A DNA stretch of 64,000 bases from Gammaproteobacteria bacterium (GCA_050118655.1 JASFKL010000001.1:186-64185); one strand, 5' to 3'. Numbered from the stretch's first letter, positions 2,731 to 41,800 are shown. A program made the numbers and translations. Notes: generated by a model not told the origin, from the sequence alone.

Positions 2731-4500
2731 ATGTTTCCCATTTCGAAGCCCCTGCCCGGGGACCGTAATCTGTTGGCCTATCCGCTGTTCGCGCTGTTGG
2801 TGGCGGGATGCGCGAACCTGCAACCCGCGCCCGATGCCGGCGGAGCGGACGCGGAGCCGATCCGGGCTCAGGACGCAGGCGACAACAGGCAGCAAATTGA
2901 CTCGCGCCTCGATGCGGTGGCGCTGGCTTCGGCCGGCTCGGTATATGTCGCTTACGATTTCGATTTCGAAAGCCAGCTGAAAATGGCCGAGACAGAGGCC
3001 GCCGAAAGACAGCGCGCGGCCGAGGCCGAAGCCAGGGCGGAAGCGGAGATCGTCGCCGCGATCAAGGCGGACCTGGAAGCGACCCGCAAGAAACACGATG
3101 CCTGGCTCAGGCTGCAACAGGGCATGCAATTGTCCGAGGTCCACAATGAGCGCGTCAACGCCCAGCTCAAATGGTTCGTCGATCACCCCGGATACATGCA
3201 ACGCGTGATGGAGCGCGCCCGTCCGATCCTGCCGTTCGTGCTCGACGAGCTCGAAGCGCGCAACCTCCCCAGCGAACTGGCCCTGCTGCCGATCGTCGAG
3301 TCGGCTTACCAGGCATTCGCCTATTCCCACGGACGCGCCTCGGGCATGTGGCAAATCATCCCCTCGACCGGCCGCTTCCTCGGGCTCAAGCAAAACTGGT
3401 GGTACGACGGACGTCGAGACATCATCGAGTCGACGCGCGCGGCGATCAATTATCTGCAGCAGTTGTCGCAGGAATTCGACGGCGACTGGGAACTCGCGCT
3501 CGCGGCCTACAACGCGGGGCCCGGCAGGATCCGCAGCGCGGTTCGCTACAACCGCTATCGGGACCGGCCGACCGATTTCTGGAGTCTGACCCGTATTCGC
3601 AAGGAGACCCAGGCTTACGTGCCGAAGATGTTCGCGCTCAAGGAAATGTTTACTCATCCGGAGAAGTACCAGCTCGACCTGTTGCCGATCAACAACCAGG
3701 TCAGTTACGAAATCGTCGAGCTCGACGGCCAGATCGATCTCGCGCTGGCCGCGGACCTGGCCGGAATCTCGGTGAATCAACTCTATCAGTTGAACCCGGC
3801 CTTCAATCGCTGGGCGACCGCGCCCGACGGGCCGCATCGCCTGCTGCTGCCGCGCGGCAAGGCGGATCATTTCAGGCACGAAGTCTCCAAGGTACCGAGT
3901 ACCAAGCGCATCAACTGGGTGCGGCACAAGATCAAGAGCGGTGAAACGCTGAGTGAAATCTCGCGACACTACCGGACTTCGGTGGCGCTGATCAGGGAAG
4001 TCAACAATATCCGCGGCAGCCATATCCGCGCCGGCAAATACCTGATGGTTCCGACGGCCACCAAATCGCTGAGAACCTATACCCTGAGCGCGAGTTCGCG
4101 GCTGGCAGCCCTGCAGAACACCGACCGCGGCGGAACCCGCCAGGAGCACATCGTGCGTCCGGGACAGAGCCTGTGGAGCATCTCGCGGAGCTACGGCGTC
4201 ACCACGCGGGCGCTCGCCAAGTGGAACGGCATGGCGCCGATCGATACCCTGCAGGTGGGACAGAAGCTCGTCGTATGGACCAGCGCCCAGGCGCGCAAGG
4301 TCAGTATCAGTCAGACGCGGCCCAGTAACGCATTACACGCGCTGCGCTACACTGTCCGCAAGGGAGATTCACTGTATCTCATCGCGGATCGCTTCAATGT
4401 CAGCATCGCGGATATCAGGCGCTGGAACCGGCTCGGCAAATATTTGCATCCCGGGCAAAAAATCAAACTTTACGTCGACATCACCAGTCAGTCCGGCTAG
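2731..4500 (+). CDS. mltD: Membrane-bound lytic murein transglycosylase D (lipoprotein, SLT domain plus C-terminal LysM repeats)
   Basis: Lipobox LVAGC near the N-terminus; SLT catalytic region LLPIVESAYQ...GMWQIIPSTG...AAYNAGPGR. Three LysM-like repeats are present (HKIKSGETLSEISRHY, HIVRPGQSLWSISRSY, YTVRKGDSLYLIADRF). Confidence 0.9.
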   Translation: MFPISKPLPGDRNLLAYPLFALLVAGCANLQPAPDAGGADAEPIRAQDAGDNRQQIDSRLDAVALASAGSVYVAYDFDFESQLKMAETEAAERQRAAEAEARAEAEIVAAIKADLEATRKKHDAWLRLQQGMQLSEVHNERVNAQLKWFVDHPGYMQRVMERARPILPFVLDELEARNLPSELALLPIVESAYQAFAYSHGRASGMWQIIPSTGRFLGLKQNWWYDGRRDIIESTRAAINYLQQLSQEFDGDWELALAAYNAGPGRIRSAVRYNRYRDRPTDFWSLTRIRKETQAYVPKMFALKEMFTHPEKYQLDLLPINNQVSYEIVELDGQIDLALAADLAGISVNQLYQLNPAFNRWATAPDGPHRLLLPRGKADHFRHEVSKVPSTKRINWVRHKIKSGETLSEISRHYRTSVALIREVNNIRGSHIRAGKYLMVPTATKSLRTYTLSASSRLAALQNTDRGGTRQEHIVRPGQSLWSISRSYGVTTRALAKWNGMAPIDTLQVGQKLVVWTSAQARKVSISQTRPSNALHALRYTVRKGDSLYLIADRFNVSIADIRRWNRLGKYLHPGQKIKLYVDITSQSG

Positions 4501-4617
4501 ATCCGGCGCTGCCATGGCGTTGCCGCGAGAATTTGTCCGCAGGTAGTTGCTTTATCCCGACCCAGACGCCAAAATAGACTTTTACGTGCGAACGACGAAG
4601 GGTTCCCCAACAAGATT

Positions 4618-5673
4618 ATGAGCCTTGAAATTGATCCCAAACAAATAAAATCCTTCTCTCCGATCAATTCTCTGAATCCAGAAAACGCTCAAGAATTAGT
4701 CAACAAAATTACCGCTACCCCGATCCAGGCGGGCCACTATATCTTCAAGAAAGGTGATATGGACAAGGCGCACGTCTACGTGCTCTCGGGCGAAGTGGAG
4801 CTGGTGCAGGACAAAAAGGTGGTCAAGACCATCAAGGCGGGCTCCCCGGAAGGCATGCAACCGCTGGCGCACGGATTTCCCCGGCCGGTGTCGGCGCGCG
4901 CCAAGGTCGCCTCGGTGGTCACCAAGATCAACAGCGACATGCTCGACATCATGCTGACCTGGGACCAGTCGGGCAGTTACTCGGTAGAACCCGTCGACGA
5001 AGAAGACGAAGAAACCGACTGGATGACCCGCATCCTGCAAACCCGGGCCTTCCATCGCATTCCGCCGGCCAATATCCAGGCGATGTTCATGCGCATGGAA
5101 TCGGTCAGCTTCAAGCCCGGCGAGAAAGTGATCGAACAGGATGCCGAGGGCGATTATTTCTACATCATCAAGGAAGGCCGTTGCCTGGTCACCCGCTCCA
5201 CGCCGGCCAACCCGAATGGCGTCAAGCTGGCGACCCTGTCGGTGGGCGACAGTTTCGGCGAGGAAGCGCTGATCTCCGACAGCAAGCGCAACGCGACGAT
5301 CACGATGCTGTCCGAGGGGCATTTGATGCGCCTCAACAAGGAGGATTTCAACTCGCTGCTGAACGAACCGCTGCTCAACTGGGTCGATTACGACGAGGCC
5401 AGGAAACTGGTCGATGCGGGCGCCGTCTGGTTCGACGTACGCCTGCCTACCGAGCACAAGGCCAAGCACATCAAGGGCAGTATCAATATCCCGCTGATTT
5501 TCCTGCGCATGAAGGCCAATTCGCTCGATACCGAAAAGAAATACGTCATCTATTGCGATACCGGCCGGCGCAGCTCCGCGGCCTCTTTTCTACTCAACGA
5601 AAAGGATATCGAGACCTTCGTATTGCGCGACGGCGTCGATACCGCCGAGCCCTCCGACCTGGTTACCAGCTAA
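4618..5673 (+). CDS. Tandem cyclic-nucleotide-binding domain protein with C-terminal rhodanese domain
   Basis: The second cNMP domain has a canonical phosphate-binding cassette (FGEEALISDSKRNATITM); the first domain is degenerate. The C-terminal rhodanese fold (WFDVRLPTEH...YVIYCDTGRRSSAAS) keeps the active-site Cys loop. Confidence 0.8.
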   Translation: MSLEIDPKQIKSFSPINSLNPENAQELVNKITATPIQAGHYIFKKGDMDKAHVYVLSGEVELVQDKKVVKTIKAGSPEGMQPLAHGFPRPVSARAKVASVVTKINSDMLDIMLTWDQSGSYSVEPVDEEDEETDWMTRILQTRAFHRIPPANIQAMFMRMESVSFKPGEKVIEQDAEGDYFYIIKEGRCLVTRSTPANPNGVKLATLSVGDSFGEEALISDSKRNATITMLSEGHLMRLNKEDFNSLLNEPLLNWVDYDEARKLVDAGAVWFDVRLPTEHKAKHIKGSINIPLIFLRMKANSLDTEKKYVIYCDTGRRSSAASFLLNEKDIETFVLRDGVDTAEPSDLVTS

Positions 5674-5702
5674 CGCGCCTCGACGCCGTCGGATCCCGCC
5701 GC

Positions 5703-7307
5703 TCAGCCGGCGTAGCCCGGGATTAGCGATTCGTCTATTTCGTCGATCTGCTCCGGATCGAGAAACTCCTCGGCGTAGTCGAGGTAAACCCGCTCGCGAA
5801 TGAAGATCTCGAAGATATCGGGATCGATGTGATTGTCCTTTTTCATGAATCCCATGATGCGCAGGCACTCGGACAGTTTCTTGCCATGCTTGTATGGCCG
5901 ATCGCTGGCGGTCAGGGCCTCGAAAATATCGGCCACCGCCATAATCCGGGCCTGTACCGACATTTCCTCCCTTTTGAGCCCGCGCGGGTATCCCGTGCCA
6001 TCCATTTTTTCATGATGTCCGCCGGCATACTCGGGTACGTTTTGCAAATTGCGGGGAAACGGCAGCGATTCCAGCATCTTGATGGTCGCGACGATATGGT
6101 TGTTGATGACTTCCCGCTCTTCATCGTTCAGCGTGCCGCGCTTGATACACAGGTTCATGACCTCGTCGTCGGTCAAAAGCGGCCGCGTCTCGCCGGACCC
6201 GTCCACCCATTCGAGCCCGGCGAGTTGCTTTACCCGGTCGATATCCTCGTCGCTCATGAATTCGCCGCCGACATTGGCCTTGCGCAAAAATTCGAAATCC
6301 TGCCGGTATTGCTCGCGACGGGATTCGAGATCCCTGTCCAGTTGTTCGACATCGGCCTTCGATCCGTTTGCCGCTAGACGTTTTTTCAAGTATTCGATTT
6401 CGGCGTCGCGCTGCAGGATCACGAAACGGGTTTCCAGCGCATTGATACGATCGTAAATCGTTTCCAGCTTGGTGGCCTTGTCCATCACGTACTCGGGGGT
6501 AACCACCTTGCCGCAATCGTGCAACCAGGCAGCGGTCTCGAGTTCGTAGCGATCCTTGTCGGTAATTCTGAAATCCTTCAGCGGCCCCTTGTCGTCCTGG
6601 TGCGCGGCCTCGGCAAGCATCATCGTCAATACCGGAATCCGCCGGCAATGACCGCCGGTATAGGGCGACTTGTCGTCGATCGCCGAGGCGATCATGCGGA
6701 TAAAAGATTCGAACAGGATTTGCAGTTCCGAGATCAGTCTCCGCTGGGTCAGCGCGACGGCTGCCTGGGAAGCCAGTGACTCGGCGAGTTGCTGTTCGAC
6801 GGCGCTGAAAACTTTGACCTCGCCGGTTTGCTCGTTCCTGGCATTGATCAATTGCAGCACGCCGATGATTTCCTTCTCGTGGTCCTTGAGCGGAAAGGTC
6901 AGCATGGAGCGGGTGCGGTAACCGGTCTTTTCGTCGAAGGCCCGCGTGCCCGAGAAATCGAAGCCGTCCTCGTTATAGGCGTCGGCAATGTTGATGGTTT
7001 CTCCGGACAGTACGCAGTGGGAGACGACGTTGGCATGGTTATCCTTGCCTTCGATCGACAGCGGTATCGCCGGAAAAGTGATTTCGTTACCCGAGGTACC
7101 GCCCATCTGTATATCGAGCGAATCGTTGGAAATGATCTCGAATCTGAGTTCGCCGTCGTTCAGAAAATACAGCGAGCCGCCATCCGCGTGGGTGAGCGAT
7201 TTTGCTCCCATCATGATCAGCTCGAGCAGCTTGGGCGTATCGTTTTCCGCCGACAGCGCGATGCCGATTTCATTTAACCGATCAATCCTGTCGAGCAATT
7301 CTGACAT
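5703..7307 (-). CDS. GAF domain / HD-GYP domain phosphodiesterase
   Basis: N-terminal GAF-like region, HD motif WLHDCGKV and GYP motif GGHHEKMDGTGYPRGL. About 168 residues separate the HD and HHE motifs. Confidence 0.85.
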   Translation of the reverse strand: MSELLDRIDRLNEIGIALSAENDTPKLLELIMMGAKSLTHADGGSLYFLNDGELRFEIISNDSLDIQMGGTSGNEITFPAIPLSIEGKDNHANVVSHCVLSGETINIADAYNEDGFDFSGTRAFDEKTGYRTRSMLTFPLKDHEKEIIGVLQLINARNEQTGEVKVFSAVEQQLAESLASQAAVALTQRRLISELQILFESFIRMIASAIDDKSPYTGGHCRRIPVLTMMLAEAAHQDDKGPLKDFRITDKDRYELETAAWLHDCGKVVTPEYVMDKATKLETIYDRINALETRFVILQRDAEIEYLKKRLAANGSKADVEQLDRDLESRREQYRQDFEFLRKANVGGEFMSDEDIDRVKQLAGLEWVDGSGETRPLLTDDEVMNLCIKRGTLNDEEREVINNHIVATIKMLESLPFPRNLQNVPEYAGGHHEKMDGTGYPRGLKREEMSVQARIMAVADIFEALTASDRPYKHGKKLSECLRIMGFMKKDNHIDPDIFEIFIRERVYLDYAEEFLDPEQIDEIDESLIPGYAG

Positions 7308-7634
7308 CTACTGGCACCTGCCCCTCGCGGAGGCCGAGCTACGCGAGCTTCGAAAGTCGCTCTATTCTAGGTGAATCCCCGGGCATTTCAATTCCGGGCC
7401 GGTTAAATTTTTAACCCCAAGCACTGGTAAAAAAGCGCATTCAACCTTATAGTTTAGAGGCATCACGATTCATAAGAATACCGGGGGGGATCCAAGCTGT
7501 TAACCAGTTCAAGGTGTTCGCATAAACTATTGAATATTATACGAATCGGATTTCTTCATTTTCCGGTCGCACACCCAGTAAAGTACGACTATAACAAGCT
7601 GGGTGACTAATAAGAATCAAACTATGGAGACGGT

Positions 7635-10265
7635 ATGAAAACCCGTTTTTGGAGTAGCGACTGGTTCGCCGGGCTGCTGATTACCATCGTGATTGTGGCG
7701 GTCTCGGGTTCCGGCCCCTTCCAAAGCCTGGAGCGCTCGTTTTACGACTGGGGCGTGCGCTCGACCGACAGGACTCCCTCCGACAAGATTGCGATCATCG
7801 CCATCGACGACGAGAGTATCGACAACCTGGGCCGCTGGCCCTGGCCGCGCGACCTCCACGCCGAATTGATCAACCGGCTTTCCGAGGGCGGAGCCAAGGT
7901 CATCGGTCAAACCGTATTTTTCCTCGAACCCCAGGTCGATCCGGGGTTGACCTATATCCGCGAACTGATCGAGTTTTTCTCTACCGCGAGCTTCGGCGAC
8001 GTTCCCGCCGATATCGATGCGCTGGGCGCGATGCTGGAACTGGGCGGCAACAATCGCAAGATAAACGATATCCTCGAATTCTATCTCCAATCGAGCCTGA
8101 ATACGCGTCTCAACCAGGATATCGAAACCCTGAAATCCCGAATGTTCGAAGCCGAGCAGGCGCTCAACACCGACGCCAAGCTCGCCGAGAGCATGGAAAA
8201 AGCCAAGAACGTCGTGCTGGCGATGGTCTTTTACCTGGGCATCCCGCGCGGCAAGCCCGACGAGGAACTGCCCGACTACGTGCTGAAAAACTCGATCAGC
8301 CAGATCCGTGACCGCGTATCGGCACAACCCAACGGCCTGTTCCCGATTCCGACCATCGATGCGCTGACACCGATTCCGGAAATCGGCCGCTACGCGGCGG
8401 CGATCGGCCATCTCAATACCCTGCCCGATATCGACGGCGGGGTTCGTTCAGAGCCGCTGGTGCTGCAGTACTACGACCGCTTCTTCCCGTCGATATCGCT
8501 GCAAATCGCCGCGCGCAGCCTGAACCTCGACACCAACGACATCCGCGTCAATCTGGCGGAGAGCGTCGAACTCGGCAGTCTGGCAATCAAGACCGATACC
8601 CAGCTGCAGATGAATACCTTTTACTACTCGAATCGCGATGGTTTTCCGGCATTTCCGGTGGATTCGTTTTACGACGTATTCACCGGCAAGATTCCGATCG
8701 AAAAGTATCGCGGCAAGATCGTTTTGATCGGCCCCACCGCCACCGGCGTCGGTACGCCGCAGGTCACTCCCATCGATCCCGCAATGGCGCCGGTACTGAC
8801 GCTCGCACACTCGGTTTCGAGCATCCTCAAGGAGGATTTTTTCATCGAGCCCGAATGGGGCTTCTGGGCGCGCATGGGTACCTTCCTCGTGGTTGCGCTC
8901 TACCTGATGCTGCTGATGCCGCGGTTAAAGGCCGGTGTCGCTTTCGTGGTCACCACGGTGCTGGTGCTGGCACTGATCGCCACCCATTACATACTGATGA
9001 CCGGCAGCACGATGTGGATTCAGTTGATGACCCCGGGGGCCCTGCTGGTGATCGGTTACCTGTTGATCACCACCAAGAGATTCCTGGTCACCGAGCGCGG
9101 CAAGGCCAAATCCGACGTGGAATCGGCCGAGAGCAACCGGATGCTGGGTATCGCATTTCAAACCCAGGGTCAACTCGACATGGCGTTCGAAAAATTCCGC
9201 AAGTGCAGCCCGGTCGACGAACAGGTGCTCGAGGCGATGTACAACCTGGCGCTGGATTTCGAGCGCAAGCGGCAATTCAACAAGGCCACTTCGGTGTACC
9301 AGTACATGGCCAAGCACGACAAGAGCTTCCGTGATATCGAAACCCGTATGAACCGCGCGCAGAAGATGGAAGAAACCGTCATGCTCGGCGGTAGCGGCGG
9401 ACATGCGGGCGGCACCCTGCTGCTCGATGGCAGCGGTGTCGAAAAACCGATGCTGGGCCGTTACGAAGTCGAAAAGGAACTCGGCAAGGGCGCCATGGGT
9501 ATCGTCTACCTGGGCAAGGACCCCAAGATCAGCCGGGTCGTGGCGATCAAGACCATGGCCCTGGCGCAGGAGTTCGAAGCCGACGAACTCGACGAGGTCA
9601 AGGAGCGGTTCTTCCGCGAGGCGGAAACCGCGGGGCGCCTGAATCATCCCAATATCGTAACCATTTACGATGCCGGCGAGGAGCACGATCTCGCCTATAT
9701 CGCGATGGAATTTCTCAAGGGCTACGACCTTACGAAACACTGCAAGCCCGATAACCTGCTGGAAATGAATACCGTGGTCAGCATCGTCCAGCGCGCCGCC
9801 GAGGGCCTCGATTTCGCGCACCGGCAAAACGTCGTGCACCGCGATATCAAGCCGGCCAACATCATGTACGAGCCGGAATCGGATACCATCAAGATTACCG
9901 ATTTCGGTATCGCGAGAATTACCGATTCGAGCAAGACCAAGACCGGGATGGTACTCGGCACGCCCTCTTACATGTCTCCCGAACAACTGGCGGGCAAAAA
10001 AGTCGATGGACGTTCCGACCTGTTTTCACTCGGCGTCATGCTTTACCAGATGCTTTGCGGATCCCTGCCCTTCAAGGCGGATTCGATGGCCAGTCTGATG
10101 TTCAAGATCACCAACGAAGAGGCCCCGGACATTCGCAGCGTGCGCGAGGATATACCCCATGGCCTGGTCGAAGTAATCGCCTTGGCCATGACCAAGGATG
10201 CCGACCAGCGATATCAGACAGGAGCCGATTTTGCCAATGCATTGAAAGCATTTCTGAATAATTGA
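7635..10265 (+). CDS. CHASE2 sensor - transmembrane - TPR-like - Ser/Thr protein kinase
   Basis: CHASE2 signature IAIIAIDDESIDNLGRWPWPRD follows an N-terminal TM segment, and three TM helices lie around aa 410-480. The kinase motifs are all present: LGKGAMGIVY, VAIK, HRDIKPAN, DFG, GTPSYMSPE. RBS GGAGA lies upstream of the ATG at 7635. Confidence 0.9.
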   Translation: MKTRFWSSDWFAGLLITIVIVAVSGSGPFQSLERSFYDWGVRSTDRTPSDKIAIIAIDDESIDNLGRWPWPRDLHAELINRLSEGGAKVIGQTVFFLEPQVDPGLTYIRELIEFFSTASFGDVPADIDALGAMLELGGNNRKINDILEFYLQSSLNTRLNQDIETLKSRMFEAEQALNTDAKLAESMEKAKNVVLAMVFYLGIPRGKPDEELPDYVLKNSISQIRDRVSAQPNGLFPIPTIDALTPIPEIGRYAAAIGHLNTLPDIDGGVRSEPLVLQYYDRFFPSISLQIAARSLNLDTNDIRVNLAESVELGSLAIKTDTQLQMNTFYYSNRDGFPAFPVDSFYDVFTGKIPIEKYRGKIVLIGPTATGVGTPQVTPIDPAMAPVLTLAHSVSSILKEDFFIEPEWGFWARMGTFLVVALYLMLLMPRLKAGVAFVVTTVLVLALIATHYILMTGSTMWIQLMTPGALLVIGYLLITTKRFLVTERGKAKSDVESAESNRMLGIAFQTQGQLDMAFEKFRKCSPVDEQVLEAMYNLALDFERKRQFNKATSVYQYMAKHDKSFRDIETRMNRAQKMEETVMLGGSGGHAGGTLLLDGSGVEKPMLGRYEVEKELGKGAMGIVYLGKDPKISRVVAIKTMALAQEFEADELDEVKERFFREAETAGRLNHPNIVTIYDAGEEHDLAYIAMEFLKGYDLTKHCKPDNLLEMNTVVSIVQRAAEGLDFAHRQNVVHRDIKPANIMYEPESDTIKITDFGIARITDSSKTKTGMVLGTPSYMSPEQLAGKKVDGRSDLFSLGVMLYQMLCGSLPFKADSMASLMFKITNEEAPDIRSVREDIPHGLVEVIALAMTKDADQRYQTGADFANALKAFLNN

Positions 10266-10279
10266 GCCCAGACTGTTTG

Positions 10280-11104
10280 ATGAATTTGCAAAACAAGATA
10301 ACCATCCAGGGCCTGACTGACACGGGGATAGTGCGCGGCAAGAACGAGGACGCGATCGGTTATGACAGCGCGCTGGGTCTCGTGGTTCTCGCCGATGGCA
10401 TGGGAGGTCATCGCGGCGGCGAAATAGCCAGCAGTATGACCGTCGATACGGTTATCAATCTCCTGCAGCAGCGGCTGCCGGAAATCAACTCCGGCGACGT
10501 CGACGAAGCCAGTGGATTTTCGATGGAGTCGATTTGTATCCAGGATGCCGTGGTCGCGGCCAACGAACTGGTCTACAAGACCGCCGAGGCCAATCCCGAA
10601 CACAAGGGAATGGGCACCACGATCGTGGTATTGCAGTTCTACAACAATTCCTTCTCCCTCGCCCATATCGGCGACTCGCGCTGTTATCGTCTGCGCAATG
10701 ACAAGCTCGAACAGATTACCAAGGATCACTCCCTGTTACAGGAACTCATCGACCGCGGCTTCTATACGCCCGAAGAAGCGCGCAATTCGATGAACAAGAA
10801 TCTCGTGACGCGTGCCCTGGGCATCGATCCGATCGTCATGCCGGACATACAGGAGGATATAGTCCTGAAAAATGACATATATTTGCTATGTTCAGATGGG
10901 TTAACGGATTTAGTCGAAGACGAAGATATATACTTAACTATTAAGCAATTTAGTGCTAATCTAGAAGAAGCTGCCAAGCAATTGATTACAAAGGCAAACC
11001 AGAATGGCGGAAAGGATAATATTTCGGTAATGCTGTGCCGGATTGACGATGATTTTTCGTCCCGGCAAGGCTGGTTCAACAAGATTGTCGGCTGGTTCGA
11101 CTAA
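10280..11104 (+). CDS. PP2C-family Ser/Thr protein phosphatase
   Basis: RGKNEDA, LADGMGGH, GMGTT, LCSDGL and GGKDNISV motifs. The ATG at 10280 was preferred over the track's TTG at 10262. The gene starts 14 nt after the kinase stop. Confidence 0.9.
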   Translation: MNLQNKITIQGLTDTGIVRGKNEDAIGYDSALGLVVLADGMGGHRGGEIASSMTVDTVINLLQQRLPEINSGDVDEASGFSMESICIQDAVVAANELVYKTAEANPEHKGMGTTIVVLQFYNNSFSLAHIGDSRCYRLRNDKLEQITKDHSLLQELIDRGFYTPEEARNSMNKNLVTRALGIDPIVMPDIQEDIVLKNDIYLLCSDGLTDLVEDEDIYLTIKQFSANLEEAAKQLITKANQNGGKDNISVMLCRIDDDFSSRQGWFNKIVGWFD

Positions 11105-11150
11105 CGGATTACACACCCAGTACAAACTACTCTACAGGCTGGATAATAAA

Positions 11151-11873
11151 ATGGTCGCAAAACTGATCACTACTTCAAGCACGGGCGAAAAAACCGAGTA
11201 TGAACTGGTCAATGAAACCACCACGATTGGGCGTAAGCCGGGTAACGATATTCAAATCGATAATCTGTCAGTCAGCGGCAGGCATGCGCAGGTAATCACC
11301 ATCCTCGAAGATTCATTTCTGGAAGATCTCGGCAGCACCAACGGCACTTACGTCAACGGCAAACTGGTAAAAAAACACGCGCTCGAAGACGGCGACAGTA
11401 TCACCCTGGGCAAGTATCAAATCACCTACCAGAATAACTCCGGCGGCGGTGAACAGGATTTCGAACAAACCATGATTATCCGCCCCGGCGAAGCGGGCAT
11501 GCCCGAAGAAGCCGGCAGCAAGGAAATCGACAAGTCGGTGCAAAAAATTTCAGCGGCGATCGCCTCGGAGGCAGCCAGCACAGCCTCGTCGCCGATGTCT
11601 AACAAGGAAGCCTGCCTGCAATTGCTCAGCGGCGCCAACGCCGGCAAGGAGCTGGTATTGACCAAGGCCCTGACCACCATCGGCCAGCCGGGTGTGCAGG
11701 TGGCGGCGATCACCCGCCGTCCGCAAGGCTTTTTCCTGATTCACGTCGATGGCGGCCCGAACAACAATGTCCCGAAAGTCGGCGGCTCGGAGATCGGCTC
11801 GAACGCGCACGAACTCAAGAGCCACGACATTATCGAAGTAGCCGGCGTAAAAATGGAGTTCTACCTCAAATAA
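11151..11873 (+). CDS. FHA domain protein (canonical N-terminal FHA plus degenerate C-terminal FHA-like domain)
   Basis: TIGRKPGNDIQI...SGRHAQ...STNGTYVNG gives the canonical G-R / S-x-x-H / N-G pattern. The C-terminal half (TIGQPGVQVAAI...VGGSEI...DIIEVAGVKMEF) has the fold pattern but lacks the R, S and H residues. The start was moved to the ATG at 11151. Confidence 0.85.
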   Translation: MVAKLITTSSTGEKTEYELVNETTTIGRKPGNDIQIDNLSVSGRHAQVITILEDSFLEDLGSTNGTYVNGKLVKKHALEDGDSITLGKYQITYQNNSGGGEQDFEQTMIIRPGEAGMPEEAGSKEIDKSVQKISAAIASEAASTASSPMSNKEACLQLLSGANAGKELVLTKALTTIGQPGVQVAAITRRPQGFFLIHVDGGPNNNVPKVGGSEIGSNAHELKSHDIIEVAGVKMEFYLK

Positions 11874-11913
11874 AGCCGTTCCTGCTCGTCCGCATTGAAA
11901 CCGGGGGCAAACA

Positions 11914-14145
11914 ATGCAATTACAGCGCATAGTCAGGCTGGTGCTTAGCGCACTGATCCTGCTGGTCATCCTGCTCGACACCTCCGGAGTTTACAAGTAT
12001 CCATTCATCAAGCAGCTGGAAAACTGGACTTACGACGCGCGGCTGAACTTTACCCGTCCCGATACCGTCGACGATCGCGTGGTTATCGTCGATATCGACG
12101 AAACCTCGCTCGCCGAGGTCGGCCGCTGGCCCTGGGGTCGCGACCAGCTCGCGCGCATCGTCGACAACCTGTTCGACTTTTACGGGGCCGACGTGGTCGC
12201 CTTCGATATCGTATTCGCCGAAAAAGACGAGAGCTCCGGACTGGAACAGTTCGAGCAGCTGGCGCGAACCACGTTGCGCGGCGACGAGGAATATATCGAG
12301 GCGCTCGATAAGATCCGGCCGAGCCTCAAACACGACGAAATTTTCGCGCAGAGCCTGGTCGGTAAAAACGTCGTTCTCGGCTATTACTTCAAGTCCAGGT
12401 TGCAGGAAGGAGAAAGCGGTGTCACCGGCCTCCTGCCCCCCGCATTGACCAGGATGGACAGGCAGTGGAGCGAACGCCTGCCGATCAACAAGGCGGTAGG
12501 CTACGGCGGCAACCTGGAAATACTGCAAACCTCGGCACGCTCCGGCGGCTACTTCGACAACCCCTTCGTCGATGCCGACGGCGTATTTCGCCGCGTGCCG
12601 CTGGTGCAGTCCTACCAGGGCTACCTGTTCGCCTCGCTGGCTCTCGCCACTACCCAGGCGTATCTCGACGCCGACGGTATCGAGCTGGCGATCGAAACCG
12701 AGGGAACGCGCGGCGAGAACGAATATTTCGCGCTGGAGACGATTAACCTGAAGAATCACAAGATTCCCGTGGACGCCAACGGCGCGGTGTTCGTGCCCTA
12801 CCGCGGCAGGCAGGGAAGCTTTCCCTATATCCCCGCCCACGAAGTGCTGAGCCGCAAGACCAACCCGCTGGCGCTAAAGAACAAGATCGTACTGATCGGC
12901 ACCTCGGCACCGGGCCTGCTCGACCTGCGCTCTACTCCAGTACAAAACATTTATCCCGGGGTCGAGGTCCATGCCAATATCATTTCCGGCATCCTCGACG
13001 ATCGTATCAAGCACAAGCCGGCCTGGACGGTGGGTTACGAACTCGTGTTACTGATAGTCATCGCGGTCAGCATGGCCTTGCTGTTGCCGCTGGTTTCGCC
13101 GCTGCTGGCGGCGACCGGGACGCTCGGGATTACCGGCCTGGTGGTCGCCGGAACCTTCGTCGCCTGGAACAACAACCTGATCCTGCCGCTGGCGAGCCCG
13201 CTGCTGCTGATTCTGTTGCTGTTCATGCTGCACATGTCCTACGGATTCTTCATCGAGTCCCGTGGCAAGCGGCAGCTCGCTAACCTGTTCGGGCACTACA
13301 TACCGCCCGAACTGGTCGACGAGATGAGCGAATCGCCCGAGGAATATTCGCTCGAGGGCGAGAACCGTGAAATGACCGTGCTGTTTTCGGACGTGCGCGG
13401 ATTCACGTCGATCTCGGAAGGCATGGACCCGAAACAGTTGACCCAGCTCATGAACGCGCTGTTGACGCCGATGACGCGCGTCATCCACAAGAACCGGGGT
13501 ACGATAGACAAGTACATGGGAGATGCCATCATGGCCTTCTGGGGCGCGCCGCTGGCCAATGCCGAGCATGCCCGGCACGCGCTCTATGCCGCACTCCAGA
13601 TGATGGAAGAACTGAAGATAATGCAGGAAGACTTCAAGCAACGCGGCTGGCCGACGGTCAACATCGGTATCGGCTTGAACACCGGCGACATGAACGTCGG
13701 CAACATGGGATCGGAATTCCGCATGGCTTATACCGTGCTCGGCGACGCGGTCAACCTGGGTTCGAGGCTCGAGGGCCTGACCAAGGAATACGGCGTCAAC
13801 ATCATCGTCAGCGAATCCACCAAGGCGGCGATACCCGAATTCGTATTCCGAGAACTCGACCTGGTCAGGGTGAAAGGCAAGAACGAACCGGTCGCAATTT
13901 TCGAACCGGTCGGGCACAAAAACGATCTCGACAAGTCGGTCACCTCGGAGATCAGCGAATACCGCAAGGCATTGATGAACTTTCGCTCCCAGTCCTGGGA
14001 CAAGGCCGAGCTCGATTTCTTCAACCTCAACCGCATCAACCCGGACCGGCAGCTATACCAGGTCTACCTCGAACGTATCGCGGTCTACCGCAGGGAGCCG
14101 CCCGGAGAGGGCTGGGACGGCGTTTTTACGCACACCACGAAGTAA
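11914..14145 (+). CDS. CHASE2 sensor - transmembrane - class III adenylate/guanylate cyclase
   Basis: CHASE2 signature VVIVDIDETSLAEVGRWPWGRD, followed by a TM cluster around aa 370-450. Cyclase motifs are MTVLFSDVRGFTS, IDKYMGDAIMAFWGAP and YTVLGDAVNLGSRLE. Confidence 0.9.
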   Translation: MQLQRIVRLVLSALILLVILLDTSGVYKYPFIKQLENWTYDARLNFTRPDTVDDRVVIVDIDETSLAEVGRWPWGRDQLARIVDNLFDFYGADVVAFDIVFAEKDESSGLEQFEQLARTTLRGDEEYIEALDKIRPSLKHDEIFAQSLVGKNVVLGYYFKSRLQEGESGVTGLLPPALTRMDRQWSERLPINKAVGYGGNLEILQTSARSGGYFDNPFVDADGVFRRVPLVQSYQGYLFASLALATTQAYLDADGIELAIETEGTRGENEYFALETINLKNHKIPVDANGAVFVPYRGRQGSFPYIPAHEVLSRKTNPLALKNKIVLIGTSAPGLLDLRSTPVQNIYPGVEVHANIISGILDDRIKHKPAWTVGYELVLLIVIAVSMALLLPLVSPLLAATGTLGITGLVVAGTFVAWNNNLILPLASPLLLILLLFMLHMSYGFFIESRGKRQLANLFGHYIPPELVDEMSESPEEYSLEGENREMTVLFSDVRGFTSISEGMDPKQLTQLMNALLTPMTRVIHKNRGTIDKYMGDAIMAFWGAPLANAEHARHALYAALQMMEELKIMQEDFKQRGWPTVNIGIGLNTGDMNVGNMGSEFRMAYTVLGDAVNLGSRLEGLTKEYGVNIIVSESTKAAIPEFVFRELDLVRVKGKNEPVAIFEPVGHKNDLDKSVTSEISEYRKALMNFRSQSWDKAELDFFNLNRINPDRQLYQVYLERIAVYRREPPGEGWDGVFTHTTK

Positions 14146-14151
14146 TACCGT

Positions 14152-15390
14152 TTACCAGCAGGCGCGTAATTCCCGCGCCAGTATGCCGACGCCTTTTTCG
14201 AGTTCCTCCTCGCTCTGCGCATAGTTCATGCGCACGCAACTCTCGGCGTGCGCGGACACGTTCTGCTGCCCGGGAAAGAAGTACTTGCCAGGCACGACCA
14301 GTAAACCGTTGCGCTTGAGCCGCTGGTAGAGTTCGGTAGTGGTCACGCCGAGATCTTCGAACCACAGCCACAGGAACATCGATCCCTCGGGTTTGTGGAT
14401 GTGCAGCCGCGGATCCTCGATCGCCTCGCGCAGCAGCCTGACCGCGAGTTCCGAGCGCTGCAGGTAAAACGGCCGGATGATATCGTCGCAAAGCGGTTGC
14501 AGGGCATCGTCGACGATCAGCTGGCGGACGATTTCGGCGCCGAGACCCGCCGGCGCGAGGCTGGTTATCGCGGTCATGTTGGAAAAATAGCGAATCAACT
14601 CCTCGTTGGCGATCACGATCCCGGTACGCGCGCCGGGCAACCCGAGCTTCGACAGGCTCATGCAAACGATGCAGTTATCGTTCCAGAAGGGATTGACGCC
14701 GGTGAATATGATGTTCGGGAAAGGCGTGCCGTAGGCATTGTCGATCAACAGCGGAACGTCGTGGTCGCGGGCGATCTGGTCGAGTTGCCCGCACTCGGCG
14801 TCGGTGAGCACGTTGCCGCTCGGATTGGTAGGCCGAGAAACGCAAATCAGGCCCACGGAATCGTCGGCCTCGAGCTGCTCGAAGTCGACCTGGTACTTGA
14901 AAAACCCGTCATCGAGGTGCTGAATCCTGGCCTCCTGGCTGGCGAGCAATCCCTCTTCGATACCGACGTCGCAGTAGCCGATATACTCGGGCACCAGCGG
15001 GATCAGAACGCGTTTACGGCCTTGCCTCGAGCGGCCGGCAAAAGAATTGAATAGAATGAAGAACGAACTCTGGCTACCGTGGGTCAAGGCGATATTGCGG
15101 CTGCTGATCGGCCAGCCGTAACGATCCCGGAAGTACTCGGCCAGCGCTTCGAGAAAGCCCGCCCTGCCCTGCGGCGCATCGTAGTTGGAAAGCGCCTCGA
15201 CCAGGGCGCCCGATTCCCGCAGTTTGTCGAGCACCTGGCCCACTATCTTCTTGACCTCGGGGATCGAAGCGGGATTGCCGCCGCCGAGCATGACCACGCC
15301 GGGTTGCGCGAGACCCTCGCTCAAATCGTCCATCAGGTGGGTAATACCGGAGTAACCGTTGAAATGTTCGCCGAATTCAGAAAATTTCAT
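14152..15390 (-). CDS. avtA: Valine--pyruvate (class I/II PLP) aminotransferase
   Basis: The N-terminus MKFSEFGEHFNGYSGITHLMDDLSEGLAQPGVVMLGGGNPASIPE parallels E. coli AvtA as I recall it. The PLP-lysine region is MSLSKLGLPGAR. Confidence 0.75.
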   Translation of the reverse strand: MKFSEFGEHFNGYSGITHLMDDLSEGLAQPGVVMLGGGNPASIPEVKKIVGQVLDKLRESGALVEALSNYDAPQGRAGFLEALAEYFRDRYGWPISSRNIALTHGSQSSFFILFNSFAGRSRQGRKRVLIPLVPEYIGYCDVGIEEGLLASQEARIQHLDDGFFKYQVDFEQLEADDSVGLICVSRPTNPSGNVLTDAECGQLDQIARDHDVPLLIDNAYGTPFPNIIFTGVNPFWNDNCIVCMSLSKLGLPGARTGIVIANEELIRYFSNMTAITSLAPAGLGAEIVRQLIVDDALQPLCDDIIRPFYLQRSELAVRLLREAIEDPRLHIHKPEGSMFLWLWFEDLGVTTTELYQRLKRNGLLVVPGKYFFPGQQNVSAHAESCVRMNYAQSEEELEKGVGILARELRACW

Positions 15391-15533
15391 TACGCCTGCT
15401 TAGAGTCGATAACAATTACAATTACTGACAGCATTTGAGAAAAATGCAACCGTTTTCGATCCCGCAACAACCACCCGGTTGACTGGCCCGTCCAATCTGG
15501 CAAGATTTGCGCGACGATAAATCCGGTGCGCGC

Positions 15534-15944
15534 ATGCAATATACCCACGATCTGGAATTCAAGGTACGCGATTACGAATGCGACATGCAAGGCGTGGTCA
15601 ACAACGGCGTCTACCAGAATTATCTCGAGCATGCGCGCCACGAGTTCCTGCAGGCCGAGGGTATCAACTTCGCTCAGGTGACTGCTTCGGGAATCAACCT
15701 GGTGGTGATTCGCGCGCAACTGGATTACCGGAAATCGCTGGTTTCGAACGACCGTTTCGTGGTGCGTAGCCTGTTGCGGCGGATATCCAGGGTCCGCTTC
15801 GAATTCCAGCAGGACATTTTTCGCTTGCCGGATGAAGAACTCGTGCTCAACGCGCTGATCACCGGCACCGCGGTCAACCGCAACGGCCGGCCCTGCGTGC
15901 CGGGCGAACTCGAAAAGCTGTTCAGCGCCGCCGAAGACGCCTGA
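15534..15944 (+). CDS. Acyl-CoA thioesterase, 4HBT/YbgC family
   Basis: Hotdog-fold thioesterase pattern FKVRDYECDMQGVVNNGVYQNYLEHARHEFL. The start was moved to the ATG at 15534. Confidence 0.75.
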   Translation: MQYTHDLEFKVRDYECDMQGVVNNGVYQNYLEHARHEFLQAEGINFAQVTASGINLVVIRAQLDYRKSLVSNDRFVVRSLLRRISRVRFEFQQDIFRLPDEELVLNALITGTAVNRNGRPCVPGELEKLFSAAEDA

Positions 15945-38803: not shown

Positions 38804-41800
38804 CTAGATCTGTTCCAGCAGTGCCTGCGCCTCTTCCTTTTGCGCATCGTTGCCTTCGGCGATGACTTCCTCCAGGCTGCCGCGGGCGCCTTCGGTATCG
38901 CCCATGTCGATGAACGCGCGCGCCAGATCGAGCTTGGTCGACACCTCGTCCACGTCGTCCGGCAACATCAGGTCGTCGATATCGTCGAGATCGGCAGCAT
39001 CGGCTACCGCGGTCGGCTCGTCGAAGTCGCCGGGCGCGAAAGTACCGGTCCTGGCTTCCTCGTCGTCATCCTCCATGTCGACATCGATCGACAGGGAATC
39101 GTCGTCGCCGGCGGATTCCACCAGTGCCGTGGGCTCTTCGAAATCGTCGGCGCCGAAATCGAGTATCGATACATCCTCGTCGTCGTCGATATCCCCGTCG
39201 TCATCCGTCGGCAGCTGCAATTCACCGGTATCCAGCGACGGATCGTTGAGATCCATGATTCCGGTATCGTCCATACCGAGATCTATGCCCTCGTCGTCAT
39301 CGCTTTCGGAATCGTCGCCGCCGAGCAACGAGGCTTCCAGCTCATCGGAAGACACCACCGCGGTTGCTTCCAGGAAATCGTCGGCACCGTCTTCTTCGGG
39401 CACCTCCAGTTCGATCGAATCCTCGATTTCGTCACCGCCGTCGTCGTCATCCGCGAAACCCAGGTCTTCACCGAGATCGAAATCGGAGGGATCGTCGTCG
39501 GTGGTGCCGTCATCGAGGTCGAAATCCATCGCCATGTCGAGTTCGTCGTCTGCCTGGTCAGCCGATTCCCCGGCGCCGACGGTATCTTCGTCGTCTATCG
39601 AAAACTCGAGTTCGTCGCCGATATCATCGGGCAAGTCGAGGCCGCTGTCCTCCGGCTCTTCCGCCCGCTGATTCAGATTCGTTTCGTCGTCCTCGCCGAG
39701 GTCGGGGAAATCGCCGACTTGCTGGACCACCTGGGTGGCCGCGACTTCTTCCTCGCCCAATTCCGGCAACTCGTCGACTTGCTGGATGACCTGGGTAGGC
39801 GGTAAGCTGTCGTCGTCACCCCCCGATTCGTCTTCGTTGAAATCCCCTCCGGTATCGTCGGCGCCGAGATCGAAATCGGTAGTCGAGAAGCTGGTATCGT
39901 CATCATCGGCGCCGAGATCGAAATCAGCCTCCTGGGGGTTGGCGATCTCCAGATCCGCGGCACTCAGATCACTGTCCTTGGCCTCCGAGAACAGCGGATT
40001 GTCTGGCGCCAGTTCGTAGCCCATGATTTGCACGCGATCCCAGTAACGTGTCGCCGCATCGCCCATCGACTTGAGTTTTTCCGCTTCCTTGACGAAAGCC
40101 GATTCGTTCTTGGTCGCGAAATAGGTATCGAGCAGTTTCGAGCGGTAATCGGCGCGATCCGGATTATCGGTCAGGCTGCTGTTGAGTAATTCCTCGGCAT
40201 TGTCGTACAGGCCATAGGCGAGGTAGACATCGACCTCGTTGAGCACGTCGTCCTGTTCGGCGGGCTCTGCCGTGGCCGCCGGAGCGGGTGCTTCGGGCTC
40301 CGGCATATCGGTTGCCGAAATGATCGAGGTCTGCGCAAAATCATCCTCGGCTTGGGGCGGCACTTCGGCGGTAACTTCCGCCGTCGAGGTCATCGTATCC
40401 AGTTCGTCGGCGGACGGGATATCCTCGTCCGACGGTGTCTTGATGTCGGTATCTTCGGGGAGTTCGACATCCGCGAGATGAATCGGGGTCAGTTCTTCTT
40501 CGTCGTCGGCGAAAAGATCCTCGTCGCCGCTCGCGGTTATCGTCGATTCGCTGTCACTGCTGTTTTTTTTTCTCTTGATTACCAGCAGGGCCACCAGGAG
40601 CAGGACTACCCCGCCGAGCGCGGCGAGCGTAATCGGGTCGCTGAAGATTCCGCCCATAGAAGGCATCGACGGAATCATGTCGGCGGCGCCGGCCGGGAGA
40701 ATTCCATCCAGGAAGGACGGCTCGCGTTTCGTCTGTTCGGTTACTATTACGGGCGCCGGCGGAGTGGTCTGCTGTGCGGCCTGTCCCTGGTCGTCCGACT
40801 GCCCGCCGGTGGCGGCTTCTTCGCCCTCGTCGGCGGCCATCCCCTCGGTGGAACCCATTTCGGCGGCAGGCGCCTGCCCGGCAGCTTCGTCTTCGACCAT
40901 GCCGCCTGCAGTTCCCTCGTCGCTGACCATGCCGTCGTCGCTGGCCGCCGGGGCTTTCGCAGCCTCTTCCTCGGCCTGGGCCGCGGCCTCTTCGGCAAGT
41001 AATTCCTCGATGAGCGCATCCTCGCTGGACTCCACCTTCCCGTTACCCGCTTCAGCCGGTGGTTCCTCGACAGGCTCGCCACCTTCGGATGCTCCAGCTT
41101 CCGGTTGCTGGGCGGACTGATCGGCCTGCAGCCTGGCCAGGCTGTCATCCTCGATCTCGACCATTTTTTGCAGTTCTTCGACCTTGGACAGGCGTGCCTG
41201 GAGATCCGAGATACGCGATTCGAGTTCGCGATTCTCGATTCGGGAGGCCTCGAGTTCTTCCTCGGCCATCGCCAGCTTGGTGCGTAACTCTTCAACCTCG
41301 GCACCATCGCCGGTTCCCGCCGAATCGCCGCCGCCGTCGGCGGGCAACAGCAGGCTCAATTCGCCACCAGACTCGCCGGTATCGGCGGTCTCGCCGCCGG
41401 CGGATTCGGTGGATTCGGCGGACTCGCCCTGATCGACCGCGGCCGTCGTCGAAACGCCGGTTACCCGTGCGACATACTCGTCCCACAGACCATTCTGGAC
41501 CAGGACTTCCGCGTAGGCTTCCTGCTCACCCATGGCATCGAGTTCGGCGGCATCGGGAGCGCGCAGAATCGCGCCCTCCTTCATATTGTTGATATTACCG
41601 TCATTGAAGGCATCCGGGTTGGCGCGCTGAAAGGCGAGCATAACCTGCGACATGCTGTGACGGTCGTCCTTATAGAGCTTGGCGATACTCCAGAGGGTGT
41701 CGCCCTTATTGACGTATACCTCCTGGTCGAGGCCGGTCTGCGAACTGGAGGGCGTGTACTGGTAACTGCTCGAGTCGGCTATCGGCTCGGGCTCCGGTTG

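Follow-up and report, generated by a model that had tools for sequence, protein, structure and literature searches.

A Conserved Six-Gene Locus That Probably Couples Serine/Threonine Phosphorylation to Cyclic AMP and Cyclic di-GMP Signaling in an Uncultured Gammaproteobacterial Lineage

Introduction

Cross-talk between bacterial second messengers has so far been known mostly from single proteins studied singly. Tlr0485 is a GAF-HD-GYP protein in which hydrolysis of cyclic di-GMP (c-di-GMP) is activated by cyclic AMP (cAMP) (PMC10124867), and Bd1971 of Bdellovibrio joins a cyclic nucleotide-binding (CNB) domain to an EAL domain and is a cAMP-sensing c-di-GMP phosphodiesterase (PDE) (PMC6717892). 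In Sinorhizobium meliloti, CHASE2 cyclases make cAMP, for which the reader is Clr, a Crp-like transcription factor (PMC13001267, PMC4222275). Triads of serine/threonine (Ser/Thr) kinase, PP2C phosphatase, and FHA protein are also known, such as PpkA/PppA/Fha1 of type VI secretion in Pseudomonas aeruginosa and PknB/PstP/FhaA-FhaB of mycobacteria (PMC5995506). Here we analyze a 64,000-nucleotide stretch of DNA from Gammaproteobacteria bacterium (GCA_050118655.1 JASFKL010000001.1:186-64185), referred to as a whole as the window, in which six genes at positions 4618-14145 encode a CNB-CNB-rhodanese protein, a GAF-HD-GYP protein, a CHASE2 Ser/Thr kinase, a PP2C phosphatase, an FHA protein, and a CHASE2-class III cyclase.

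The GAF-HD-GYP protein of the locus has the architecture of PmGH and Tlr0485, with the HD, HHE, GYP, and RxYK residues all present. As in Tlr0485, which we compare by description only, a cAMP input to c-di-GMP hydrolysis is proposed. Unlike PmGH, the protein carries an insertion of about 100 amino acids (aa) in its HD-GYP domain, has a Tyr instead of E185 (binuclear type), and is genetically linked to a CHASE2 cyclase. The locus resembles Bd1971 in that cAMP signaling would converge on c-di-GMP degradation; it differs in having a GAF sensor, an HD-GYP fold, and a multi-gene organization, whereas Bd1971 is a single protein with CNB and EAL domains. Like the S. meliloti enzymes, the cyclase joins a class III catalytic domain to a CHASE2 sensor in the periplasm. 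Unlike in S. meliloti, it ends an apparent kinase/PP2C/FHA operon and no DNA-binding reader is linked to it, the linked candidate readers being the HD-GYP enzyme and the CNB-rhodanese protein. Its nearest catalytic domain is that of P. aeruginosa CyaB (3r5g), with the same Lys/Thr pair; the sensor of CyaB is MASE2, not CHASE2. As in the known triads, the gene for a membrane Ser/Thr kinase lies with those for a PP2C that opposes it and for a reader of the FHA type. The differences are the CHASE2 sensor, an adaptor with one canonical and one degenerate FHA domain, and the linked effector, a nucleotide cyclase where the known triads have a secretion or cell-wall machine. The tandem of two CNB domains is found as well in the regulatory subunit of protein kinase A (PKA-R), in protein kinase G (PKG), and in P. 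aeruginosa CbpA, of whose CNB domains one is degenerate and one canonical. In contrast to these receptors, the protein described here has a C-terminal rhodanese output with an intact catalytic Cys.

No description of the six-gene cluster and no paper on CNB-rhodanese fusions was found in the literature searched. The module is real and conserved and is built from known families; the conserved linkage among all its parts, the HD-GYP subgroup with the insertion, the adaptor made of an FHA and a pseudo-FHA domain, and the CNB-rhodanese fusion as a dedicated partner appear to be new within that literature. In two classes of Proteobacteria, the order of the genes suggests a fixed wiring from Ser/Thr phosphorylation to cAMP to c-di-GMP, and because every step of this wiring has a candidate protein and candidate residues it is directly testable. 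For one subgroup of the PmGH-family GAF-HD-GYP proteins, the locus offers a functional setting and cAMP as a candidate ligand; it also offers a candidate input route for CHASE2 cyclases and, in the CNB-rhodanese protein, a possible non-transcriptional cAMP receptor. Cultured carriers exist: Chitinimonas viridis CECT 7703 and Curvibacter soli have an 8-gene version, Alteromonas sp. a30 and Rheinheimera soli have the cyclase/HD-GYP pair, and Duganella is a further carrier.

Results and Discussion

Conservation of the Six-Gene Block

Open reading frame (ORF) and Pfam analysis of positions 4618-14145 found six genes and nothing further of note, which agrees gene for gene with the initial annotation of the interval between mltD and avtA. 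We consider it probable, with some reserve, that these genes constitute one conserved signaling module that couples Ser/Thr phosphorylation, cAMP, and c-di-GMP and operates by the steps proposed below. The domain content, the intact motifs, the operon layout, and the conserved co-occurrence are what we observe of this module. The lineage of the window is uncultured yet abundant in metagenomes, with more than 100 protein clusters at 77-96% identity, and in five contigs of that gammaproteobacterial lineage the six genes again lie within the mltD/avtA flanks (proteins 77-96% identical). The expectation that the six genes move as one block in relatives was thus borne out: they are not scattered, being fixed in the five contigs and reordered in Betaproteobacteria. 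This outcome supports the initial proposal that a cyclic nucleotide from the cyclase could be read by its neighbors, which would tie it to c-di-GMP turnover and to a sulfurtransferase-like output. The locus had also been called a compact signaling island, a term not to be taken as implying mobility; the block is fixed in the chromosome.

Three protein homologue searches gave relatives at no less than 76% identity only, and wider diversity came from a search of representatives and two contig scans. In the first scan, a cyclase-family profile made from representatives clustered at 50% was run against one genome per GTDB species, and 80 loci (numbered with the prefix L) were fetched and compared with the window proteins by tblastn; orthologue extractions from the high-GC loci L016, L018, L021, and L073, which were in the wrong frame, were left out. 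Four arrangements were seen. (a) The order of the window is found also in a more distant gammaproteobacterial metagenome-assembled genome (MAG; L003, kinase 57% identical), with four unrelated genes inserted ahead of the cyclase. (b) About 15 betaproteobacterial genomes, among them Propionivibrio, Sulfuritalea, Chitinimonas, Nitrosomonadales, and Burkholderiales, have the order kinase, PP2C, FHA, cyclase, a metallo-beta-lactamase (MBL)-fold PDEase_II-like protein, CNB-rhodanese (in six), a GAF-MshEN/T2SSE ATPase, and GAF-HD-GYP, often with a type IV pilin. (c) Alteromonas, Rheinheimera, and Pseudoalteromonas lack the kinase genes and have GAF-HD-GYP 41-56 bp downstream of the cyclase. (d) In Duganella and Pseudoduganella GAF-HD-GYP lies directly upstream of the cyclase. 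The cyclase/GAF-HD-GYP pairs of these five cultured genera are 41-67 bp apart, and the two genes adjoin in genomes without kinase, PP2C, and FHA (L046, L047, L058, L031, L055). Among the 46 loci with at least 8 kb on each side, HD-GYP was present in 16, and FHA and PP2C in 15.

The second scan, of metagenomes, was anchored on the betaproteobacterial type of CNB-rhodanese and yielded 80 loci, with partners counted only where the flank was sufficient. The CNB-rhodanese gene was accompanied by a PDE-like gene in 64/64 loci, the cyclase in 44/51, FHA in 41/45, PP2C in 36/39, the ATPase in 34/40, GAF-HD-GYP in 29/32, and the kinase in 20/29, the last being a likely undercount from split alignments. 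All six families occurred together in 15 of the 22 fully informative loci, and across the 80 sampled the gene was almost never outside this neighborhood. The clustering of the same families across bacterial classes indicates more than chance. It is nonetheless true that within the gammaproteobacterial lineage the block and its housekeeping flanks are merely syntenic, as any neighbors would be, and one could suppose that six independent signaling genes came together by chance and were inherited vertically. We regard this as very improbable and largely refuted, given that the same families are found in another class in another order with other flanks, that cyclase/HD-GYP pairs recur in at least four arrangements, and that CNB-rhodanese is hardly ever found elsewhere.

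Even less probable, in our estimation, is that the locus is a Pycsar-like or kinase-based anti-phage defense system pairing a cyclase with a CNB-domain effector. PADLOC does give matches to the cyclase, CNB, and kinase domains, with its models of PycC, of PycTIR (CNB part), and of the PD-T4-6 kinase; these matches are at the level of shared domains only, and there is no TIR or pore-forming effector module, the effector domain being a rhodanese. The cyclase belongs to the CHASE2 membrane receptors and has the residues that specify adenine, and all relatives sampled have the block at one fixed position in the core genome, not in a variable region. The reading as a Pycsar-like or kinase-based defense system was rejected on these grounds.

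One candidate counter-example to the conserved layout was also rejected. L007 (CP070646.1; cyclase 85% identical) has the operon and avtA and no upstream CNB-rhodanese or HD-GYP gene. A 100-N gap lies 176 bp upstream of its kinase, and the DNA upstream is a run of truncated unrelated genes; we therefore attribute the arrangement to a scaffold artefact. CP070646.1 is titled a MAG 'chromosome', and 100-N spacers at L007 3495-3595 and 5447-5547 join truncated genes, so synteny across these spacers is unreliable.

The Kinase, Phosphatase, and FHA Proteins

The kinase, PP2C, FHA, and cyclase genes are separated by gaps of at most 46 bp, and a terminator scan found no terminator-like site in these gaps. 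This arrangement is consistent with the four genes forming one operon. All kinase motifs are complete: G617xGxxG (617-622), K639, HRD (735-737), DFG (756-758), and SPE (781-783). Hydropathy analysis gave 1+3 hydrophobic transmembrane segments around CHASE2 in both the kinase and the cyclase. The PP2C protein has all of the metal-binding motifs (NEDA, DGMGG, GDSR, SDGLTD, KDN) and scores 248.7 bits against the NCBIfam Stp1/IreP PP2C model (NF033484), for which the cut-off is 230.

The N-terminal FHA domain is canonical (R28, S42, H45, N64), and the top NCBIfam matches of the FHA protein are FhaB, OdhI, and TagH. Its C-terminal domain matched the N-terminal profile in hhalign with a probability of 96% (E 4.5e-9); as Pfam misses this domain, its FHA-like nature is known from the profile-profile comparison alone. 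Pfam gave nothing significant beyond weak TPR hints for the C-terminal 87 aa of the FHA protein, the cyclase tail, or the kinase linker. The kinase linker contains a motif, EETVMLGG (579-586), in which T581 is invariant among 17 orthologues, and the linker of the FHA protein contains an invariant FE(K/Q)TM(I/V)(I/L)(R/K) motif with T107. Both residues lie in E-x-T-hydrophobic motifs and are candidate FHA docking phosphosites.

PP2C and FHA are the most conserved proteins of the block, at 90-97% identity, against 84% for the kinase of the same relatives. The G+C content over their genes (10000-12000) is 0.49-0.53, compared with 0.56-0.60 around them.

The Predicted Adenylate Cyclase

The residues expected of an active cyclase are present: D493 and D537 for metal, K533 and T607 for adenine, and N614 and R618 for the transition state. 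These six are at least 90% conserved in 47 representatives of the family (36-51% identity). The solved structures nearest to the enzyme are those of a phytochrome-AC fusion and of CyaB from P. aeruginosa (E 6.8e-35), and K533/T607 align with the same residues of CyaB 3r5g, a Thr at the second specificity position being typical of class IIIb. Since this pair specifies adenine, cAMP is the predicted product, and the enzyme is predicted to be a class IIIb adenylate cyclase; the cyclic nucleotide monophosphate (cNMP) of the initial annotation is thereby narrowed to cAMP.

The cyclase ends in a tail of ~80 aa (13890-14145, residues about 660-743) that has no Pfam match and is conserved across the family, with the consensus PPxxDWDGV and nearly invariant W734 and G736. 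Members of the CHASE2 cyclase family adjoin a gene for a TPR/SlipAM-type outer-membrane protein in L010 (12540-15594) and also in L017, L022, L029, L044, L046, L050, and L051; L010 pairs this gene with a FecR-domain gene, and none of these is found in the window. The TPR/SlipAM neighbor recalls NsrA, the outer-membrane protein required for S. meliloti CHASE2 cyclase signaling. In Alteromonas sp. a30 (L046, 9114-14910) another MBL-fold hydrolase (282 aa) precedes the cyclase/HD-GYP pair, its stop overlapping the cyclase start, and a patatin-like phospholipase follows.

The GAF-HD-GYP Protein

PmGH (4mcw) is the top solved relative of the GAF-HD-GYP protein (E 6.8e-36), followed by V-cGAP3 (5z7c). 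An HD-GYP phosphodiesterase needs the HD dyad and an HHExxDGxGYP-type motif, and the protein has both; the metal and catalytic residues H220, H263-D264, H404, H431-H432, D460, and GYP (439-441) are kept in 17 cyclase-linked orthologues. The RxY[K/R] motif marks specificity for c-di-GMP over cyclic GMP-AMP (cGAMP) among HD-GYP proteins, and a Tyr at the position of PmGH E185 marks the binuclear enzymes that halt at pGpG (10.1101/2021.11.05.467447). The protein has an intact R470-P-Y-K473, by which c-di-GMP is its predicted substrate. Y216 stands at the position of E185, the third-metal Glu of PmGH, so that this feature of the trinuclear subclass is missing, the binuclear class is indicated, and pGpG is suggested as the product. 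We predict from these motifs that the protein is a c-di-GMP-type phosphodiesterase of the binuclear class.

Alternatively, the substrate might be 3'3'-cGAMP, or the protein might serve as an adaptor without catalysis, and the second messenger would then not be c-di-GMP. Some HD-GYP proteins do cleave cGAMP or work by protein contacts, V-cGAP3 is the second-best solved relative, and the KPG motif reads KRG here with the 100-aa insertion beside it. We consider this improbable: the cGAMP-preferring enzymes have RxxQ or RxxN where this protein has RxYK, the metal ligands are kept in every orthologue, and the island encodes no cGAMP synthase.

The insertion lies between DKATKL (276-281) and IKRGTL (388-393). 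PmGH and V-cGAP3 lack it, every cyclase-linked HD-GYP orthologue has it, and the HD-GYP census (10.1101/2021.11.05.467447) does not mention it. An AlphaFold model, built with a shallow alignment of 32 sequences of 75-94% identity, shows it as a long helical hairpin (H282-312 and H317-346) with a local predicted distance-difference score (pLDDT) of about 87-91. The model as a whole (mean pLDDT 66; predicted template-modeling score, pTM, 0.39) was too poor for a fold search and was used for the local hairpin prediction alone. The borders of the insertion resemble a duplicated K-x-G/T-K/T-L segment.

When the GAF domain was searched alone, its matches in the PDB were PDE5 GAF-A (2.7e-20), PDE2A GAF-B (2e-11), CyaB2 (2e-11), and PDE10. 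The 16 matches at E of 0.01 or below were all to PmGH or to the GAF domains of CyaB2, a cyclase, and of PDEs regulated by cNMP. By sequence affinity the domain is thus nearest to the cNMP-binding subgroup of GAF domains, in line with its initial description as a candidate reader.

The CNB-Rhodanese Protein

In the PDB, the tandem CNB domains come closest by sequence to those of PKG and PKA-R. Across 8 gammaproteobacterial and betaproteobacterial orthologues, the cassette of CNB-B and the catalytic Cys of the rhodanese domain (C..GRRS) are invariant, and of the two CNB domains only CNB-B looks ligand-competent from its sequence. On this basis the protein is a candidate cAMP receptor. PspE-type NCBIfam matches of the rhodanese domain were under the cut-off, and domain analysis of the six genes upheld the initial statement that the island encodes no DNA-binding domain. 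An identical CNB-rhodanese protein has already been deposited from MAGs labeled 'Gammaproteobacteria bacterium'.

A Proposed Signaling Route

We propose that the CHASE2 kinase and the CHASE2 class IIIb adenylate cyclase act as inner-membrane receptors that would sense an extracytoplasmic cue, each by its periplasmic CHASE2 domain. The kinase, opposed by PP2C, would make phosphothreonine sites that the FHA adaptor reads, T581 and T107 being the candidates. This phospho-switch may then gate the cyclase, a step suggested by the position of the cyclase as the last gene of the operon, and the cyclase would make cAMP. Motifs and neighborhood point to two probable readers of the cAMP. One would be the GAF domain of the divergently transcribed GAF-HD-GYP protein, which would then hydrolyze c-di-GMP with pGpG as the probable product, so that activation of the cyclase would lower c-di-GMP. 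The other would be CNB-B of the CNB-rhodanese protein, whose intact catalytic Cys suggests a non-transcriptional output, by sulfur transfer, persulfide chemistry, or protein contact. All of the ligands, all of the phosphosites, and the direction of regulation in this route are what we infer from the observed features.

Several points weigh against the proposed route. The support for the module comes from sequence and synteny, and the action of the FHA protein on the cyclase is read from gene order. GAF ligands are not readable from sequence, even the GAF domain of PmGH has no assigned ligand, and NKFDE, the signature motif of cNMP-binding GAF domains, is partly kept (N155, A156 for Lys, F167, and E170-Q for D-E). 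The HD-GYP protein, as noted, could be modeled only poorly. Cyclase homologues at or below 42% identity, mostly from Alphaproteobacteria, are without any partner, several betaproteobacterial loci (L021, L025, L032) have the operon and the ATPase without HD-GYP, and in 7 of 51 CNB-rhodanese loci no cyclase gene separates FHA from the PDE-like gene. The sampled loci, moreover, represent one gammaproteobacterial lineage and one broad betaproteobacterial radiation, and because they are phylogenetically clustered the counts overstate the number of independent events.

Some of these points would suit a different coupling, in which the six genes still form one module and the HD-GYP and CNB-rhodanese proteins are reached by phosphorylation or protein contacts rather than by cAMP; the GAF domain would bind another molecule or none, and cAMP would act elsewhere. 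The incomplete NKFDE motif and the lack of an assigned ligand for the PmGH GAF domain fit such a scheme, as do the betaproteobacterial loci that keep the kinase operon and ATPase without HD-GYP, and two FHA-type domains in one adaptor are suited to bridging two partners. We consider it possible but unlikely. The cyclase and GAF-HD-GYP are adjacent even in the genomes that have no kinase, PP2C, or FHA, in the betaproteobacterial version the genes for a putative phosphodiesterase of cAMP and for a protein whose CNB cassette is canonical lie between the cyclase and HD-GYP, and the closest solved GAF domains bind cNMP.

The Betaproteobacterial Version

In the betaproteobacterial version of the module, the MBL-fold class II-like phosphodiesterase would serve as a cAMP eraser, and the PilB/GspE-like ATPase and pilins suggest a type IV pilus-like machine as the ultimate target; such genes are absent from the island of the window, and no homologues of the betaproteobacterial PDE, ATPase, or pilin were found in the window. 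The GAF domain of the ATPase is ~33% identical to that of the HD-GYP protein. A regular-expression search did not find the 24-residue c-di-GMP-binding MshEN motif in the ATPase, and we therefore make no claim of c-di-GMP binding for it. We raise as a tentative and still doubtful extension a previously unrecognized and widely distributed relay of three codes, in which the phospho-switch would gate the cyclase and cAMP would directly turn on the insertion-bearing GAF-HD-GYP protein, lowering c-di-GMP, and would also control a new class of cAMP receptor with a rhodanese output of persulfide or sulfur-transfer chemistry; together they would steer a type IV pilus-like ATPase, as suggested by the betaproteobacterial cluster.

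The MBL-fold protein (255 aa; L005 12254-13021) matches class II cAMP phosphodiesterases (Pfam PDEase_II, E 8e-15). The GAF-MshEN/T2SSE ATPase is about 790 aa (L005 14088-16490), often with type IV pilin genes next to it, and both PDE and ATPase are found also in L010, L012-L016, L018-L020, L039, and most of L083-L162. In L083, L084, L092, L110, L112, L129, and L147 the FHA gene is followed directly by the PDE-like and CNB-rhodanese genes with no cyclase between; in L138 the cyclase is instead about 4 kb downstream. A fusion of a Ser/Thr kinase to a cNMP-binding domain (Pkinase E 5e-52, cNMP_binding E 5e-11) lies a few kb downstream of the betaproteobacterial cluster in L015 (20305-21507) and L006 (19548-20858), and from its domains this protein could be a further cAMP reader.

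Gene Layout and Flanking Sequence

The coordinates of the genes and domains are given in Table 1. Two gene starts differ from those of the longest ORFs: the gene calls of relatives give lengths of 258-275 aa for PP2C and 240 aa for FHA, and for this reason ATG 10280 and ATG 11151 are favored. The divergent intergenic region is likely to be the promoter region for both the HD-GYP gene and the kinase operon. Two promoter-like sites were found on its minus strand, at 7391-7364 and 7503-7475; overall, the promoter and terminator scans were not above shuffle expectation. An Rfam scan of 4300-15600, including the c-di-GMP classes of riboswitch, gave no match at E of 1 or below, and the intergenic region was likewise without a match.

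Table 1. Positions in the window of the six genes, their domains, and the flanking genes.
Feature	Positions	Strand	Length	Details
CNB-CNB-rhodanese gene	4618-5673	+	351 aa	Pfam: two cNMP_binding stretches 1.9e-28, Rhodanese 1.5e-12
CNB-A	about 4675-4962	+		residues about 20-115; degenerate, without phosphate-binding cassette
CNB-B	about 5050-5367	+		canonical cassette FGEEAL 213-218 and R224-N-A-T
Rhodanese domain	about 5392-5637	+		active-site C313 in YCDTGRRS
GAF-HD-GYP gene	5703-7307	-	534 aa	Pfam: GAF 5e-12, HD_5/HD (HD-GYP) 1.6e-44
HD-GYP domain	about 5793-6710	-		Pfam
Insertion in HD-GYP domain	6153-6455	-	~100 aa	residues about 285-385; split HMMER alignments to 4mcw, 5z7c
GAF domain	about 6750-7241	-		Pfam
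Divergent intergenic region	7308-7634		327 bp	between HD-GYP gene and kinase operon; AT-richer
CHASE2 Ser/Thr kinase gene	7635-10265	+	876 aa	Pfam: CHASE2 5e-51, Pkinase 2.7e-56
Kinase CHASE2 domain	about 7683-8900	+		followed by TPR-like linker
Kinase domain	about 9462-10211	+		Hanks-type
PP2C phosphatase gene	10280-11104	+	274 aa	Pfam PP2C; longest ORF from TTG 10262
FHA protein gene	11151-11873	+	240 aa	Pfam FHA 1.7e-21; longest ORF from TTG 11043
FHA-like degenerate C-terminal domain	11640-11870	+		residues 164-240; without phosphothreonine-binding loop
CHASE2-class III cyclase gene	11914-14145	+	743 aa	Pfam: CHASE2 4e-60, Guanylate_cyc 4e-23
Cyclase CHASE2 domain	about 11956-13068	+		Pfam
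Catalytic cyclase domain	about 13366-13887	+		Pfam
MltD-like lytic transglycosylase (flank, outside module)	2731-4500	+		SLT and three LysM domains
Valine-pyruvate transaminase AvtA (flank, outside module)	14152-15390	-		596 bits versus cut-off 467

The top NCBIfam match of the gene flanking the CNB-rhodanese gene is murein transglycosylase D, with a score under the model cut-off. The remainder of the window is housekeeping (PpiD, HU, Lon, CysS, PurF, and a LeuC-type aconitase), plus a FimV homologue of 1204 aa (38804-42418, minus strand; Pfam FimV_N, E 3.6e-37). FimV proteins act in type IV piliation and as polar hubs, and the one of P. aeruginosa has a connection to the activity of the adenylate cyclase CyaB. 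The presence of this homologue suggests that the source organism has type IV pili, which fits the pilus-linked module of the Betaproteobacteria.

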